Source: Candidatus Iainarchaeum sp. (GTDB lineage: Archaea > Iainarchaeota > Iainarchaeia > Iainarchaeales > CSSED10-239). From it: a DNA stretch of 8,594 nucleotides. A program made the position numbers and the translations under genes. The stretch's first letter is position 1. The number at the start of each line of letters is the position of its first letter. Where the stretch lies: assembly GCA_937968065.1 (NCBI GenBank), contig CALBUD010000081.1, forward strand, positions 1 to 8,594, given 5' to 3'. Of the stretch, positions 3,350 to 8,093 are shown piece by piece. The notes beneath the pieces were generated by a model. The model was not told where the DNA came from and ran no database searches. It saw nothing but the letters and a program-made list of their open reading frames with translations.

Positions 3350-3643
3350 ATGATTAAAGCTATTTTGGAGAGGCAAGGTTTTTCAGTTTTTATTCCTTTA
3401 AAAAAAGATGAATTTGATTTATTAGCAATTAAACAAGATCATATAATTGCAATAGTCCACTTTAAAAACAAAACTTTAACAGAAGATAAGTTTCTTTCAA
3501 CTTATAAAAAAGAAATAATTAACTTAATTGATTTACATCTACCTTTTAATTTTTCCAAAGAAATTTGGATTGAAACCAAACAAGGTTTATTTTCAATTAA
3601 TGTTTTAAATATTTCTAAAATAACAAATGAGGTGTTTGCTTGA
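3350..3643 (+). CDS. Small PD-(D/E)xK / Hjc-like nuclease-fold protein, catalytic motif apparently incomplete
   Basis: ILERQGFSV...x13...DLLA...IAIVHFK follows the spacing of archaeal Holliday-junction resolvase Hjc (L..GF - 13 aa - D - about 13 aa - E-x-K). However, E-x-K reads H-F-K and the N-terminal catalytic Glu is missing. SD GGAG lies at 3338-3341. Confidence 0.4.
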   Translation: MIKAILERQGFSVFIPLKKDEFDLLAIKQDHIIAIVHFKNKTLTEDKFLSTYKKEIINLIDLHLPFNFSKEIWIETKQGLFSINVLNISKITNEVFA

Positions 3644-4164
3644 ACCCTTATTTTTTAATAGGTTATATTTTTTTATTAATTATAGGTTTTTTCTTTGCAA
3701 GAAAAGACACAAGAGAAGGTATAATTCCAGATAAATGGACAAACCCATTAATTATTTTATCTGTAATAATGTATTTTTTTGCATTTAATTTTTTCTCATT
3801 TACTTTTTATTTATATTTCACAATTTTAGTTTTACTATATCTATTTTTTGTATATCTTCAAAGAGCAATGCATTATTCAGGTTTAGCTTTAGGCACTGGT
3901 GATGTAAAATTTTTATTATTAATTTATGCATTAATTCCTTTTAGTTCTTCTGCTTTTGTAGGAATTCCTTTTTTTAACATTCTTTTTTGGACAATTGTTT
4001 TAGTTTTTTTCATGGTTTCTTTCAGATTAATTTATTATTTATTATTTTCCAAACTAAAAATCTTCAAAATAATGTATGGTTCATCAATTGATAAAACTGA
4101 AATTAGACTAGCTCCAATTATTTACTTTAGTTTGATAATCAACTTTTTTATACTTATTTTGTAA
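3640..4164 (+). CDS. Short A24-family aspartyl prepilin/preflagellin peptidase (TadV/CpaA/FlaK-like, no methyltransferase domain)
   Basis: Polytopic membrane protein. The first catalytic Asp lies in FARKDTREGIIPD (D23, nt 3706-3708). The second lies in the GxGD-type motif GTGDVK (D88, nt 3892-3909). The TTG start at 3640 overlaps the upstream stop (TTGA) and is preceded by GAGGTG (3629-3634). The first in-frame ATG is codon 44, which would delete TM1 and D23. Confidence 0.75.
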   Translation: MNPYFLIGYIFLLIIGFFFARKDTREGIIPDKWTNPLIILSVIMYFFAFNFFSFTFYLYFTILVLLYLFFVYLQRAMHYSGLALGTGDVKFLLLIYALIPFSSSAFVGIPFFNILFWTIVLVFFMVSFRLIYYLLFSKLKIFKIMYGSSIDKTEIRLAPIIYFSLIINFFILIL

Positions 4165-4261
4165 GTTTTCTAAAATACAAAGGTTTTTATATTTAAAAAA
4201 GTAAATCTGCTTTAAAACCTTTATTTTATAGGTATCTAACACTATTTTTACTTTTAAGATA

Positions 4262-4276
4262 CTTTTATATATAATT
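4262..4276 (+). promoter_or_regulatory. Candidate TATA-like promoter element for the prepilin-like gene
   Basis: CTTTTATATATAATT sits in a 175-nt AT-rich spacer. The predicted 5' UTR would contain a 6-bp hairpin CAAGCT-ttat-AGCTTG (4306-4321) and the SD AGGTGA (4333-4338). Confidence 0.3.
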
Positions 4277-4342
4277 TAAATCATTATATACTTATAATTC
4301 TAATCCAAGCTTTATAGCTTGAGATAAATAAAAGGTGATTTG

Positions 4343-4543
4343 ATGTTATTCAAAAACGAAAAAGGTGCAGGAATGATAGATTCTGTTATTGCTGGTGTTG
4401 TAACAATTATAGGTGTATTAATTGTAACTAATGTTGATACAGCTGCTAATCTTTCAGGAGCTACTGCAACAATGACTGGATTAATTGGTCTTGTATTATC
4501 TGCTGGTGGTATCTTATTTATCATAATGAATGTATTCAGATAA
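4343..4543 (+). CDS. Flp-like / class III signal-peptide prepilin, 66 aa, with two hydrophobic helices (candidate pilin or coat/membrane structural protein)
   Basis: The N-terminus MLFKNEKG|AGMIDSVIAGVVTIIGVLIV has Lys-Gly at -2/-1 (nt 4361-4366), Ala at +1 and Asp at +5 (4379-4381), then a hydrophobic helix. It closely parallels the Flp pattern F.KDE.GA..IEY. A second hydrophobic helix is MTGLIGLVLSAGGILFIIMNVF. The track start at 4340 is a TTG; the ATG at 4343 is preferred. Confidence 0.75.
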   Translation: MLFKNEKGAGMIDSVIAGVVTIIGVLIVTNVDTAANLSGATATMTGLIGLVLSAGGILFIIMNVFR

Positions 4544-4572: not shown

Positions 4573-4621
4573 TTGCCTTGCCTTTCTCCTATTGGGCAAG
4601 GCAATCCTCTCCTATTTTTTA
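4573..4621 (+). terminator. Strong hairpin (TTGCCTTGCC/GGCAAGGCAA, 12-nt loop) followed by a T6 run
   Basis: Stems at 4573-4582 and 4595-4604 are exact complements. The T-run lies at 4615-4620, about 30 nt after the stop of the prepilin-like gene. Confidence 0.7.
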
Positions 4622-4670: not shown

Positions 4671-5054
4671 ATGGACTGGTATTTATTTTTAATATTTAGT
4701 ATTTTTTCAATAATCTTTTTATTATTTGGTTATAGTTTTAAGACCAGACTATATATTATTTTAGGTTCTCTTTTTATGATTTTAATTGGTTTTTTAACAC
4801 TATCAAATGGTATTTATTTACCTAATGGATATGATGTTTCATATGATTCTTTTTCAATAGATAAAAATATTATTGATTCTAATGTAACTGAATCTTTAGT
4901 AACTATAGATAATTTAGAATTAAATCCAAAGTTTGAACATATAGATAAAGATAGTCTTTATTCCAAATGGCTTTTTGGGTTATTATTTATGTTTGTGGGT
5001 GCTTTTGTATTATTTGATGCATTCTTTAATAATAGATTTAATAAATTTGTATAA
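4671..5054 (+). CDS. Membrane protein, 127 aa (two N-terminal and one C-terminal TM helices)
   Basis: Hydrophobic segments are WYLFLIFSIFSIIFLLFGY, LYIILGSLFMILIGFLTL and WLFGLLFMFVGAFVLF, around an acidic/polar loop. It is the first gene after the terminator and promoter-like region. I recognise no family. Confidence 0.7.
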   Translation: MDWYLFLIFSIFSIIFLLFGYSFKTRLYIILGSLFMILIGFLTLSNGIYLPNGYDVSYDSFSIDKNIIDSNVTESLVTIDNLELNPKFEHIDKDSLYSKWLFGLLFMFVGAFVLFDAFFNNRFNKFV

Positions 5055-5075
5055 AATTAAATAGGAGTTGGTTAA

Positions 5076-5579
5076 ATGCCAGACATAATGTATGATGCTC
5101 CAAGACAAACACAAATGGAGTCCGAAGAAGAAATTTTATCACGATTAATTACTCCTGAAGGTAAGACTTCATATAGAGAGGTTACAGAGTTTGACCCTGT
5201 AAGAAACAAATTTGTAAAAAAAGCAATTGATCTTGGTTCTCCTGAATTAAATCTTGCTGATTTAACCACAGCTATTTTAGTAGGTCAAAAATCTGAATTT
5301 GCTTTTGCTTGGCACACTGTCGCTTTAATTAATCAACTAGTTTTTATTGAAAGAGAATCTGGTTATGATTTATCTAATCTAATTAGATTTCATTATAACA
5401 ATTTAACCACAAATTTAAATTTATCCAAATCTGTTGATGGTGCAACAATGAAAGCATTAACAACTAAAGAATTAAAACAAATCCAAGAACATAGAATGGT
5501 TGGAGCTAATGGAGAAGCTCAAGACGAATATAAAGGTCTTGGCGACTTTATTAGAAGAAATCTTGGTGGCAAAAAATAA
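5076..5579 (+). CDS. Hypothetical protein, 167 aa
   Basis: SD AGGAG (5063-5067) lies 8 nt before the ATG. The ORF fills the space between its neighbours. No motif recognised. Confidence 0.75.
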   Translation: MPDIMYDAPRQTQMESEEEILSRLITPEGKTSYREVTEFDPVRNKFVKKAIDLGSPELNLADLTTAILVGQKSEFAFAWHTVALINQLVFIERESGYDLSNLIRFHYNNLTTNLNLSKSVDGATMKALTTKELKQIQEHRMVGANGEAQDEYKGLGDFIRRNLGGKK

Positions 5580-5594
5580 AGGAGTTGAAATTTA

Positions 5595-6584
5595 ATGAAC
5601 CCAGTTTTATTACAAGCAATATTTTTAATTATAATATTTTTCTTAAGTTTAACAATTGCATTTATGCTTAAATTTGGTGGGTATAGTTTTAGGCAATATA
5701 TCAAATCTAAATTACCAGGTTTCAAGCATAAAGGTGCTTGGTTTATTCAAGCAGGTGTAAATCAAAAAGTTAGATTAGTTTATAAAAAATTACCTGATGA
5801 CTTAAGAATAAAAATTAAATCTGGTGAAATTCCAGAAGATGACCAATATGCAACAATTAACGAAGTATTTCATCAAACAGATGACGATGGAGTTCCTGTT
5901 CTTTTTACTTTAGAAGATCTTCCTTTTACTTTCTTTTTAAAGAAACATCATTTAGATGATTTTTTTCCACAAGTAGATGAAATGATAAGTTTAATTGATG
6001 AAATTACTTATAACAAAATGTTTGATGAAGCAGAAGCTTTGAAGTTAATTATTAAAAATAAATTAACAGAAATGAAACCTTCCTTAAAATATATTCCAAA
6101 TTCCATTGCTGAACTTAATGCAATTTTTGGAATTGAAAAAAGTTTAAAATTTAAAGATAAACCTGCAATTTCTATTCTTTTAGAATTCAAAAAACATTTA
6201 TTCAAATTAAAAGAATCTATTTTAGAATCAAATAGACAGTTTGTTAATGTTCACGATCTTTTCCAAACAACAGGTTTTGTTAAAAACTTAACTAAAATTG
6301 CATTTATGGAATGGCAGAATGGTTTTTTAGCTGCAAAACAAACTAAAATGGAAAAGAAATTCAATACTTGGCTTGTTGTTATTGTAATTATAGTAGGTGT
6401 TTTAACTATAGTTGGAATTTATTTAACCAATTCTCTTAACGAAAGATTAGATGTTACTCAACAACAATTAAATCAAACACAAACAACTCTATTAGAAATT
6501 AAACAAGTATTAGGTGTAAATGTAACTGATACTACTAACACAATAGATTCTAACCTACCAGTTCCAAATAACCCATTGCAATAA
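5595..6584 (+). CDS. Bitopic membrane protein, 329 aa (N-terminal signal/anchor helix, C-terminal TM anchor, Q/T/N-rich tail)
   Basis: SD AAGGAG at 5579-5584. N-terminus MNPVLLQAIFLIIIFFLSLTIAFML. Second TM WLVVIVIIVGVLTIVGIYL near the C-terminus, followed by a coiled-coil-like segment LDVTQQQLNQTQTTLLEIKQ. No family recognised. Confidence 0.8.
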   Translation: MNPVLLQAIFLIIIFFLSLTIAFMLKFGGYSFRQYIKSKLPGFKHKGAWFIQAGVNQKVRLVYKKLPDDLRIKIKSGEIPEDDQYATINEVFHQTDDDGVPVLFTLEDLPFTFFLKKHHLDDFFPQVDEMISLIDEITYNKMFDEAEALKLIIKNKLTEMKPSLKYIPNSIAELNAIFGIEKSLKFKDKPAISILLEFKKHLFKLKESILESNRQFVNVHDLFQTTGFVKNLTKIAFMEWQNGFLAAKQTKMEKKFNTWLVVIVIIVGVLTIVGIYLTNSLNERLDVTQQQLNQTQTTLLEIKQVLGVNVTDTTNTIDSNLPVPNNPLQ

Positions 6585-6598
6585 GGAGATGAAATTAA

Positions 6599-7057
6599 AT
6601 GACTACATCAAGTCCAGGTAAAGGTGGAGAAAAGATTATCAAGTCAGTAAATGACTGGAACTATAAAACAATGGTTCTTGATAATTACAATGCTACAAAG
6701 AGTGTCTTAGTTGCAACAGCACAGAGTAAATTTGATAAGTCAATGGTGCAAAGTTGTTATTTAGCTACCTCTTCCCTTGCAAATATGATACTTCCTTTCA
6801 TTAAGACTAATAATTATAACATTACCTCTAAACCAATTAAAGAAAGAATAGATTTACTCTTAACTGAACTTGAAAATGATTATCCTGATGTTCAGACTTT
6901 CAATTTATCTGAGAGAGCAGAATACACTTTAAAATGTGGTCAAGTTATTAATTTACTTCCTCCTTTGTTCAGTTATATTGGTATGTATGTAAAGACAACT
7001 GCTAGAGGTATGTTTTTCTATCCAGATAAAGAACAAAAAGGAGATATGAATGAGTAA
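6599..7057 (+). CDS. Hypothetical protein, 152 aa
   Basis: SD AGGAG (6584-6588) lies 10 nt before the ATG. Its 3' end overlaps the next gene by 8 nt. Confidence 0.75.
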   Translation: MTTSSPGKGGEKIIKSVNDWNYKTMVLDNYNATKSVLVATAQSKFDKSMVQSCYLATSSLANMILPFIKTNNYNITSKPIKERIDLLLTELENDYPDVQTFNLSERAEYTLKCGQVINLLPPLFSYIGMYVKTTARGMFFYPDKEQKGDMNE

Positions 7058-8093
7058 TTATGAACCAAGAGTAATGCCGAGTGCAAGGTATGATTTAATT
7101 CCATATACAATTAAATTATCTCCAGAACCACAAAGGTCTTTACTTTATGAAATGTGGGCAAGACCAAGAAATAAGAACAACACCTTCTGCACTGTTACAG
7201 GAAATACCGGAAGTGGGAAGAGTTATGGTAACATTTTCTTTGGTTATATGCTTGATGTTGATAGCCACGAGAACCATTTATTTACAGAAGACGAAATAAT
7301 TTTTGACCCATTGGATTTTGTTGATAGAGTTTCAAAACCAAGAAGAATAGGTCAATTTTTTATGAAGGATGAGATTCAATTAGATGCCCATGCTAGAAAA
7401 TCTTTTTCTAAAATTAATGAAGTTCTAGGGAATGTAATGTCTACTATTAGATACAAGAGAGAAATAATTTTTTTAAATCTTCCATCAGAAACACAACTTG
7501 ATTCACAGATTAGATTATTAAGGTATGGTACTTTTGAGTTTACTGGTGTTGATCCAACTGGTTCATTTTCTAAATTTCAATTTGAATATCTAAATTATCC
7601 AAAAAAAGCAGACACAGAAGTTAGACAAGATAAAAAGGTTCAAAGAGATCCACTTGTAATGTGGGATAAAGAAGATGAAGCTTATGTTTCTCTTAAACAC
7701 TATACTGATTTATCCCTATTTTTACCATTTCATAAAAAAGACTTTGCAAAACTTCTAAAAGCTTATGATAGAAAGAAAGATGAATACTTAATGGGTAAAT
7801 ATGATAAATTCAAAAAAGAAATGAAAGAAGTTATGAATTCAGTTAATAATGATGAGAAATCATTAGAGGATATGATTGTATATGTTGATAAGCATAGAGA
7901 TCAATTTATGGGTGATAAAAAATTATCATTAGTTGCTCTGCAAAAGCATTTTAAAATTAATATTACAACTGCAAGACTTGTTAGAGCAGAGTTTCATAAT
8001 AGCTTTGCTGTTGAGAAAAAAGAAAAAAAGAAAGAAAGGTCAGCATTTATTGATGAACTTAAAAAAAGGAAAGAAATATTAAAAAATATGTAA
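7050..8093 (+). CDS. P-loop NTPase (Walker A/B), candidate packaging/assembly ATPase, with a Lys/Glu-rich C-terminal tail
   Basis: Walker A GNTGSGKS (nt 7200-7223). Walker B FFMKDE (7356-7373), followed by IQLD. A possible sensor strand is IIFLNLPS. SD GGAG at 7040-7043. No TM segment. Confidence 0.85.
   Translation: MSNYEPRVMPSARYDLIPYTIKLSPEPQRSLLYEMWARPRNKNNTFCTVTGNTGSGKSYGNIFFGYMLDVDSHENHLFTEDEIIFDPLDFVDRVSKPRRIGQFFMKDEIQLDAHARKSFSKINEVLGNVMSTIRYKREIIFLNLPSETQLDSQIRLLRYGTFEFTGVDPTGSFSKFQFEYLNYPKKADTEVRQDKKVQRDPLVMWDKEDEAYVSLKHYTDLSLFLPFHKKDFAKLLKAYDRKKDEYLMGKYDKFKKEMKEVMNSVNNDEKSLEDMIVYVDKHRDQFMGDKKLSLVALQKHFKINITTARLVRAEFHNSFAVEKKEKKKERSAFIDELKKRKEILKNM

Follow-up and report, generated by a model that had tools for sequence, protein, structure and literature searches.

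A minimal A24 prepilin peptidase gene beside the gene for a small, possibly processed membrane protein in a probable virus-like element

The peptidase and its small neighbour

Contig CALBUD010000081.1 of assembly GCA_937968065.1 is an 8,594-bp stretch of DNA, called the window here, with a G+C content of about 25% and every gene on the + strand. It holds a gene for a minimal prepilin peptidase of the A24 family and, after a 178-nt spacer, a gene for a 66-residue hydrophobic protein with a short leader that ends in Gly. Prepilin peptidases are housekeeping enzymes of pilus, archaellum and secretion systems. The window is most likely part of a non-tailed, virus-like double-stranded DNA element of at least 28 kb, and the small protein is most likely a major structural (coat or membrane) protein of its virion, which would be cleaved after Gly8 by the element's own peptidase. 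Both open reading frames (ORFs) lie where a first-pass annotation of this DNA had put them, at 3640-4164 and 4343-4543. The features of this region are:

3640 to 4164, + strand: minimal A24 (GxGD) aspartyl peptidase, 174 amino acids (aa), about 6-7 predicted helices, PF01478 match, FlaK-like fold.
4264 to 4271, + strand: TTTATATA box, about 72 nt 5′ of the small gene.
4332 to 4339, + strand: strong Shine-Dalgarno (SD) sequence of the small gene, AAGGTGAT.
4343 to 4366, + strand: leader MLFKNEKG, predicted cleavage after Gly8; N5 and E/Q6 nearly invariant.
4367 to 4543, + strand: predicted mature 58-aa protein with hydrophobic helix 1, a loop with the sequon AANLSG, hydrophobic helix 2 and a C-terminal Arg.
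4573 to 4620, + strand: hairpin with a 10-11 bp stem (4573-4582/4595-4604), then a T-run (4615-4620); fold -19.3 kcal/mol, z = -5.1.

The peptidase gene starts with TTG and has GAGGTG 7 nt upstream. Because its start overlaps the stop of a 97-aa ORF (3350-3643), the two genes are probably translationally coupled. The 174-aa product scored 29.7 bits (E 9.5e-7) against Pfam PF01478 (Peptidase_A24), above the gathering cut-off of 26.5, and PF01478 was also matched by 11 of 12 homologues with 30-68% identity (best E 3.1e-12). The candidate catalytic residues are D23 in RKD23TREGIIPD (codon 3706-3708) and D88 in GTGD88VK (codon 3901-3903), and their spacing of 65 residues falls within the usual A24 range (FlaK D18/D79, PibD D23/D80). 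A search of 5.8 billion proteins returned nine relatives with 50-97% identity, in all of which D23 and GTGD88 are invariant, and D23 and G87-D88 are still invariant in further copies from related contigs, with identities down to 30%. Position 85 of the alignment is Gly in all homologues across the 30-97% identity range, except one (QTGD). The invariance of both aspartates and of GxGD over such deep divergence favours an active protease.

The AlphaFold model of the peptidase (predicted local distance difference test, pLDDT, 72.9) is all-helical; D23 is found where helix 1 ends and GTGD where helix 4 begins. Its top match in the PDB by Foldseek was FlaK (3s0x_B; probability 0.95, template modelling (TM) scores 0.53/0.50, E only 0.27), and the second was a presenilin homologue, likewise a GxGD protease; sequence searches of the PDB gave no match. 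A bifunctional PilD/ComC-type peptidase is ruled out: the 174 residues are the A24 core only, with no methyltransferase domain (DiS_P_DiS) and no other domain match, and the protein is therefore assigned to the short FlaK/TadV-like form. The earlier description of a minimal A24 peptidase with D23 and D88 and no methyltransferase domain held up on profile score, invariant aspartates and fold, and ORF 3640-4164 is, judged by sequence and model, a real, very divergent short FlaK/TadV-like A24 peptidase. The copy of the 174-aa protein in GCA_041655415.1 carries the PGAP name 'prepilin peptidase'.

NCBIfam and PHROGs held no match for the peptidase. Searches by tblastn with the peptidase, the small protein and the ATPase of the window (7050-8093) found no match in phage and plasmid collections, and IMG/VR scans with the peptidase and the primase-helicase were likewise negative, as were look-ups of exact copies of the primase-helicase and the ATPase. 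A profile search of 1.84 billion representative proteins, made with a narrower (less diverse) peptidase alignment, recovered only nine clusters, all of 130-184 aa, and reached no cellular A24 enzyme. Since this profile search and tblastn reach no cellular, phage or plasmid relative, the peptidase is, as its sequence relationships indicate, an old lineage specific to these elements and one of their core viral genes, not a gene captured recently from a host. Among viral structures, an unnamed 138-aa protein came closest to the peptidase model (BFVD A5Y2D8; probability 0.91, TM 0.48/0.57). ORF138 of the spindle-shaped virus PAV1 (L039 10909-11325) is a 138-aa membrane protein in which TRSD/AVD/PLSP are placed comparably to RKD/TGD/LAP of the peptidase. 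The identity of A5Y2D8 with PAV1 ORF138 could not be confirmed, and hhalign and Pfam were negative, so this is a lead only.

The small gene encodes a 66-aa precursor, MLFKNEKG followed by AGMIDSVIAGVVTIIGVLIVTNVDTAANLSGATATMTGLIGLVLSAGGILFIIMNVFR, with two hydrophobic stretches, approximately residues 9-31 and 44-65; hydropathy exceeds 2 across residues 9-31, directly after Gly8. Among 43 distinct homologues, 40 of them motif-scored, leader length does not vary, all 43 have the Gly at the leader's end, and the pattern N5-E/Q6-x-G8 is conserved. An N-x-S/T sequon lies in the loop of 33 of the 40. Gly at -1 directly before a hydrophobic helix, the one thing that A24 enzymes demand almost universally, is, on this alignment, a feature of the family; Lys at -2 together with an acidic residue at +5 is true of the window protein only. 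When every ORF of the window and of 11 related loci (12 loci) was put through a simple scan, no other credible class-III-like N-terminus was found. This agrees with the earlier claim that no other N-terminus in the window fits, and leaves the small protein as the sole plausible cognate substrate of the peptidase.

The small gene has putative transcription signals of its own. In 11 of 15 informative loci the exact TTTATATA octamer lies 5′ of the small gene although the flanks otherwise diverge; it is present in only two copies in the entire window, and it matches the archaeal TATA-box consensus. By its sequence conservation TTTATATA is a promoter element that gives the small gene its own promoter, which may alternatively be of the sigma-70 type, and the hairpin 3′ of the gene looks terminator-like. 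One related contig (L035 2768-3800) has, after the peptidase gene, a tandem pair of small-gene paralogues (3361-3567 and 3594-3800), both starting MLFKNEKG; the pair resembles the VP1/VP3 pattern, or the one or two major capsid proteins (MCPs), of spindle-shaped viruses.

The label 'Flp-like prepilin' given to the small protein in the first-pass annotation is not supported. Several observations speak against a Flp/Fap pilin: there is no Flp_Fap (PF04964) match at E<=1, the sequence after Gly8 is AGMIDS and lacks G/xxxxEY (a slash marks the cut here and below), a second transmembrane helix makes the protein a hairpin, and TadA or TadB/C genes are absent from the matches of the window and from the precomputed Pfam matches on related contigs. 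A double-glycine bacteriocin leader or a circular bacteriocin was rejected, the leader being too short, the peptidase of the wrong class and the gene syntenic with virus-type genes. The protein had no noteworthy match in Pfam and none in PHROGs, and GTDB genome scans with the small-protein and ATPase alignments gave no match.

The surrounding element and its host

The pair lies between a replication module and a morphogenesis-like module of a virus- or plasmid-like replicon, as had been described before. From 5′ to 3′ the window holds iterons, a primase-helicase gene, small ORFs of the Zn-finger type, the 97-aa ORF, the 174-aa peptidase, the 178-nt spacer, the 66-aa ORF, ORFs of 127, 167, 329 and 152 aa, the 347-aa ATPase and a 119-aa ORF. 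The features outside the pair are:

240 to 441, + strand: iteron array of GTTTGAAATCCAAAC-type repeats, families D1-D6 (repeat search).
600 to 2243, + strand: D5/P4-type primase-helicase, 547 aa, without SD; TIGR01613 2.6e-43, DUF5906 3.2e-20, phrog_864 5e-59.
3350 to 3643, + strand: 97-aa ORF, its stop overlapping the start of the peptidase gene; also conserved among close relatives and on L009.
4671 to 7057, + strand: four conserved genes with no family match, for a 127-aa membrane protein and for proteins of 167 aa, 329 aa (hydrophobic N- and C-terminal segments) and 152 aa.
7050 to 8093, + strand: P-loop ATPase, 347 aa, Walker A GNTGSGKS, closing the module; no Pfam match; not of the PilB/TadA/FlaI type.

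The iterons, four to five copies of about 27 nt each with the near-palindrome GTTTGAAATCCAAAC, lie in the AT-rich stretch 5′ of the primase-helicase gene. The array is likely the replication origin, and the primase-helicase is the replication module of the element. The 309 bp between the primase and Zn-finger genes (2231-2540) correspond to about 1.65 kb with three extra small ORFs in 95%-identical relatives (L015 6547-8199), and this interval is a variable cassette site. In the 97-aa product, the pattern GFSV...DEFDLLAI...IIAIVHFK resembles the core of PD-(D/E)xK nucleases, a resemblance that drew no profile support.

Downstream of the peptidase there is a conserved block that is always headed by the small gene, followed by the genes for the 127-, 167-, 329- and 152-aa proteins and the ATPase. 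The four middle proteins have no match in Pfam, NCBIfam or PHROGs, and their genes are syntenic with the small gene in all relatives (tblastn synteny table). The first-pass annotation had seen no PilB/TadA/FlaI ATPase here; none of that type is encoded, but a P-loop ATPase is. When a hidden Markov model (HMM) of this ATPase was searched against all ORFs of SSV1, His1, PAV1 and the Nitrosopumilaceae spindle virus NMM1, the top match was His1 ORF16 (E 1.5e-4). Alignment of the two by hhalign gave E 2.5e-4 (probability 43%) and 1.5e-3 (probability 16%) over 110-123 columns that include Walker A, the Walker B DE and the motif S-[TI]-[IL]-R-Y-K. SSV1 B251 matches the ATPase at the P-loop only, and the AlphaFold2 model of the ATPase (pLDDT 59) was too poor for a structure search.

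In close relatives (L001 4850-6883; also L002, L014 and L015) the ATPase has 677 aa, against 347 aa in the window. An insertion of about 330 aa, absent from the window copy, splits Walker A there (GNTG/C...FITGN/SGKS, the slashes marking its ends), starting with Cys and ending with Asn followed by Ser. By these end residues it appears intein-like; Pfam gave no intein or endonuclease match for it.

The element is larger than the window. About 40 related metagenomic contigs were found, and identical copies of the peptidase and the small protein also occur on other assemblies. Contigs L013-L015, also metagenomic, are 94-96% identical to the window and extend beyond its ends, and the window is therefore only part of an element that measures at least 28 kb (contig NPIE01000839.1). 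A length of about 36 kb is possible if L015 and L001, which overlap over 8 kb at 99.9% identity, are merged. Upstream of the region equivalent to the window there is a tyrosine integrase (Pfam 1.8e-14), and downstream there are glycosyltransferases together with numerous small ORFs. The same plan is kept by distant relatives of 21-30 kb (L005-9, L032, L041-43), which also encode an integrase, a Gtf3_C-type glycosyltransferase and adhesin-like proteins that are 850-1,300 aa long and in some cases have Laminin_G_3, CHB_HEX or CBM_5_12 domains. No related contig exceeds 30 kb, and no host flanks, tRNA genes or composition jumps were seen on them.

T2SSE and T2SSF are absent from the window and from the Pfam matches on related flanks, and the earlier statement that the pair lies outside any pil, tad or arl locus is borne out; more generally, no pilus or secretion ATPase or platform gene appeared among the matches of the window or the precomputed Pfam matches on related contigs. 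No terminase, portal or recognised capsid protein was found among the family matches of the window and the flanking DNA of related contigs. VirB4, VirD4 and relaxase had no family match in the window, nor among the precomputed Pfam matches and spot checks of the 20-kb relatives.

Both genes of the pair are present on every related contig with sufficient flanking DNA, usually side by side, which supports the pairing described earlier. Linkage was judged where the contig reached at least about 600 nt beyond the 5′ end of the small gene (tblastn synteny table, extended to further contigs). The peptidase gene lies directly 5′ of the small gene on L001-4, 9, 10, 13-15, 18-22, 25, 26, 28-30, 32-35 and 41/42, and the linkage persists down to 57% identity of the small protein and 30% identity of the peptidase.

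A much smaller replicon also carries the small gene. Contig L016 (Ga0334901_1005303, 8081 bp), whose ends overlap by 100 bp, closes into a complete circle of 7,981 bp; L017 is identical to it over 7.2 kb. L016 has a 95%-identical copy of the small gene together with the promoter region of that gene. It shares with the large elements an 824-aa protein rich in Ser, a membrane protein of 77 aa and a D5-like primase, of which approximately the last 60 residues nearly match those of the window's enzyme. It has no peptidase, ATPase or other module genes. By analogy with pSSVx and pSSVi, which accompany fuselloviruses, it is a candidate satellite or plasmid needing the large element as helper.

The host is somewhat more probably archaeal than bacterial. 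The archaeal side is favoured because of the TTTATATA box, the first genes without SD, an Arc_trans_TRASH domain, the His1-like ATPase and a gene content like that of non-tailed archaeal viruses. The first genes of their units, at 600 and at 4671 (the 127-aa membrane protein), have no SD, and an AT-rich TATA-like sequence lies 15-35 nt upstream of each; operon-internal genes all have a GGAG or GGTGAT SD. At the sequence level this would be the pattern typical of archaeal leaderless genes, though it is not proof. The Arc_trans_TRASH domain, above threshold in a relative, is another archaeal hint. A bacterial hint comes from the integrase, which has weak matches to Firmicute prophages, and NCBI lists another copy of the proteins under '[bacterium]'. 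The primase matches both Firmicute phages and Nitrosopumilaceae spindle-shaped viruses and does not discriminate.

Maturation of a coat subunit and its alternatives

We propose the following model, to which as a whole we would give about an even chance. The major membrane-embedded structural subunit of the element would be the small protein, expressed from a strong promoter of its own. It would insert into the host membrane as a helical hairpin, with the leader and the C-terminal Arg in the cytoplasm and the sequon loop outside, where glycosylation may occur. The element's A24 peptidase, sitting in the same membrane, would then remove the leader after Gly8 at the cytoplasmic face, as happens with prepilins. 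Finally, the trimmed 58-aa subunit would be assembled into particles by the conserved proteins encoded downstream and the ATPase resembling His1 ORF16. The first-pass annotation had offered several uses for the pair, and maturation of the element's own coat subunit is the best supported of them.

Several features argue for a structural subunit. First, the small gene has its own promoter box, a strong SD and a terminator-like hairpin, and it heads the conserved module. Second, there are tandem paralogues, conserved glycosyltransferases together with the loop sequon, and the ATPase weakly resembling His1 ORF16. The architecture of the small protein also fits that of the MCPs of spindle-shaped viruses, with a mature length of 58 aa, two hydrophobic segments and one or two paralogues. 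Because direct MCP homology is not detectable, calling it a coat protein rests on architecture and position.

A number of observations weigh against this model, and they concern the leader, the linkage of the genes, virus homology and the host. FlaK requires Lys or Arg at -2, a feature typical of class III signals in archaea; in our family position -2 is K in 21 of 43 homologues, N in 18 and S in 4 (among the 40 scored, K 18, N 18 and S 4, the other three also having K-G), and the basic residue is missing in half. The net charge of the leader in the scored set is -1 in 19, 0 in 8 and +1 in 13, and a negative charge in 19 of 40 is atypical of class III signals. The acidic residue that follows the Gly, at +5 or +6, is replaced in a few homologues. 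Of the class III signal rule invoked in the first-pass annotation, the Gly thus stands throughout the family, and the Lys at -2, the charged leader and the acidic +5 are seen in the window protein but do not hold throughout its homologues. The peptidase and the small gene have separate promoters, and in one sub-lineage (L005-8 and L043) the peptidase gene lies about 6.5 kb away, on the opposite strand, beside the primase gene. With this arrangement, and with a window that is a fragment of the element, the description of the pair as self-contained was overstated. The circle L016 is the only element that has the small gene and no peptidase gene.

Homology to known virion proteins is the next difficulty. 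The link between the ATPase and His1 is weak at hhalign probabilities of 16-43%. The small protein reached hhalign probabilities below 1% against SSV1 VP1, His1 VP21 and the VP1/VP3 profile; its HMM gave nothing significant among the ORFs of SSV1, His1, PAV1 and NMM1, and tblastn found no match. Finally, identical proteins (MFA5528491.1 and MFA5528490.1) are encoded on the 4.8-kb contig L003 (GCA_041655415.1, JBBAFM010000153.1) of a metagenome-assembled genome (MAG) labelled Peptostreptococcales bacterium. This assignment conflicts with the archaeal-virus-like features and was probably driven by composition. Short contigs of low G+C are not binned reliably, and bacterial phages are over-represented in databases.

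The separation of the two genes would suit an alternative in which the peptidase processes, or misprocesses, the pilins or archaellins of the host, securing a receptor or adhesion structure or blocking superinfection, with its place next to the small gene a matter of gene order only. A24 enzymes are promiscuous on class III-type substrates, type IV pili matter to SSV9, SIRV8 and SNJ1/SNJ2, and both the separate promoters and the unlinked genes of L005-8 and L043 are what this alternative would expect. We nevertheless consider it unlikely. The enzyme is deeply divergent and element-specific, with no near cellular relatives, and it is present in every sufficiently covered member, as a core gene would be and an accessory gene would not. 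Piliated hosts already own an A24 enzyme, and the invariant Gly-terminated leader would be left with no explanation.

That leader, with Gly at -1 in front of a hydrophobic N-terminal helix, could also belong to a pilin, Flp-like or of a minimal archaeal type, which is cut by the element's peptidase and polymerised by host machinery in a lysogenic conversion like that by the SNJ2 pilins. Very small pilins do exist, such as Flp and EpdE of M. maripaludis. Virus-encoded pilins processed by host PibD are documented (PMC12426801). We rate this slightly lower again, as the small protein matches neither Flp_Fap nor any pilin profile, and its second strongly hydrophobic helix (about 44-65) points to a membrane hairpin. 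Moreover, the small gene heads the morphogenesis-like module in every relative, neither an assembly ATPase nor a platform gene appears among the precomputed Pfam matches of any contig, and an element carrying a pilin as its only cargo would need no private peptidase.

A hairpin of two helices is also the size of a conjugative pilin, and the element might then be a plasmid or integrative element whose small protein is a VirB2/TraA-like pilin or channel subunit with a dedicated peptidase, comparable to TraF and TrbC of RP4. The integrase, the primase-helicase and the iterons suit a plasmid, as do the plasmid-like 8-kb circular relative, the binning of a contig in a bacterial MAG and the failure to recognise capsid, portal or terminase genes. 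A conjugation system would be expected to show VirB4, VirD4 or a relaxase, none of which was matched in the window or in the Pfam matches and spot checks of the 20-kb relatives, and the ATPase picks out His1 ORF16 and not a secretion ATPase. The large adhesin-like proteins and the glycosyltransferases fit archaeal virus genomes, and the contigs are all of 21-30 kb, none of them inside a longer host contig. A plasmid origin of this kind seems improbable to us. Least probable of all is that the leader stays on, MLxxNExG serving as a cytoplasmic interaction tag and the A24 homologue having another membrane role or none: N5-E6-x-G8 is indeed more conserved than usual class III leaders and lacks their usual positive charge, but both catalytic aspartates and GxGD are invariant over deep divergence, and the scan of 12 loci found no other candidate substrate.

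Known systems and significance

The coat-maturation model joins parts that are known separately. With the archaeal peptidases FlaK, PibD and EppA and with bacterial TadV/CpaA, the enzyme of the window shares the Pfam family, about six helices, a first Asp near the end of helix 1 and a second in the GxGD with which a later helix begins. It differs in its extreme divergence and in its setting, a virus-like element with no pilus or archaellum locus. The presumed substrate differs from FlaK-type substrates in being a two-helix hairpin with a leader that often has no Lys or Arg at -2.

Pairs of an A24 peptidase and a pilin do occur on mobile elements: PilU and PilS on the IncI1 plasmid R64, BfpP and BfpA on the EAF plasmid, and TcpJ and TcpA on the Vibrio pathogenicity island, which was once proposed to be a phage, VPIphi. 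To our knowledge these pairs always lie inside complete type IVb pilus operons, with assembly ATPase, platform and secretin. A mobile A24 peptidase with a cognate small hydrophobic substrate is common to those systems and to ours; here there is no pilus operon, and the substrate heads a virus-type block. Thaumarchaeal integrative and conjugative elements encode prepilin peptidases and pilins alongside VirB4 and FlaI machinery. The temperate pleolipovirus SNJ2 encodes PilA1 and PilA2, class III signal-peptide proteins processed by host PibD (PMC12426801). In contrast to our element, SNJ2 uses the host enzyme, and its proteins are true pilins that form host pili and are not virion components.

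Module layout likens the element to spindle-shaped viruses. Their modules, as in His1 (Halspiviridae) and the wyrdviruses, comprise an MCP (about 70-80 aa, two hydrophobic segments, one or two paralogues), conserved uncharacterised genes, a large adhesin-like protein and a soluble P-loop ATPase, and the ATPase of the window is weakly similar to His1 ORF16. The differences are that MCP homology is not detectable and that the replication module here is a D5 primase-helicase.

A parallel in processing may be VP1 of the fuselloviruses. An archaeal class III site is, by the PibD and FlaFind rules, [KR][GA] at the cut followed by a hydrophobic helix. The VP1 precursor of SSV1 is cut before Glu66 by a protease reported as unknown, and the five upstream residues are essential while the Glu is not (PMC5748691). 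The sites and precursors of four fuselloviruses are:

SSV1: NPKLTKG/EATNIG; L011 12567-13001.
SSV2: SPKSKKA/EGSINIG; L044 13372-13638.
SSV6: NPKLAKA/EGVNVG; L045 14967-15398.
SSV9 (K1): NPKLTRG/EATNIG; L046 230-643.

In these sequences [KR][GA]/E stands directly before the first hydrophobic helix, and by analogy the sites may be read as PibD-type class III sites. No publication connecting PibD with VP1 came up in a literature search. In S. islandicus, knockout of pibD leaves the cells unable to support SSV9, an effect that was attributed to pilus loss. SSV1 VP1 resembles our small protein as a small two-helix hydrophobic protein with an N-x-S/T sequon in the loop and an N-terminal extension cut before helix 1. 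Fusellovirus VP1 differs in its leaders of 14-65 aa, in having no detectable homology to the small protein and in coming from viruses with no recognisable protease; the peptidase family HMM found no A24 homologue in SSV1, His1, PAV1 or NMM1.

Our literature search found no virus-encoded A24 peptidase, nor an A24 enzyme paired with a capsid-like hairpin protein. What is new here is the genomic, and probably also the functional, setting of an enzyme-substrate logic that is already known. If the model is true, it would be a new use of an A24 enzyme, as a core gene of a virus-like element that has no pilus machinery, and an intramembrane aspartyl protease would join the viral maturation proteases as a new kind. 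It is tempting to go further and regard A24 peptidases as the capsid-maturation proteases of membrane-assembled archaeal viruses in general, with this family carrying its own enzyme and fuselloviruses using host PibD for VP1; we hold this extension to be possible and somewhat doubtful. It can be tested in a cultured system through the old question of which protease cuts SSV1 VP1 (PMC5748691).

The elements themselves form a widespread, undescribed family of non-tailed elements of about 25-35 kb from anoxic habitats; the sampled sites include landfill leachate, digesters, soda-lake and Ace Lake sediments. Should their host be bacterial after all, they would be Firmicute viruses or plasmids built on an archaeal-virus-like plan, which would be equally unexpected. 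If A24 peptidases do serve membrane-assembled archaeal viruses in general, virion assembly in spindle-shaped or pleomorphic viruses would be tied mechanistically, and perhaps evolutionarily, to the biogenesis of type IV pilins.

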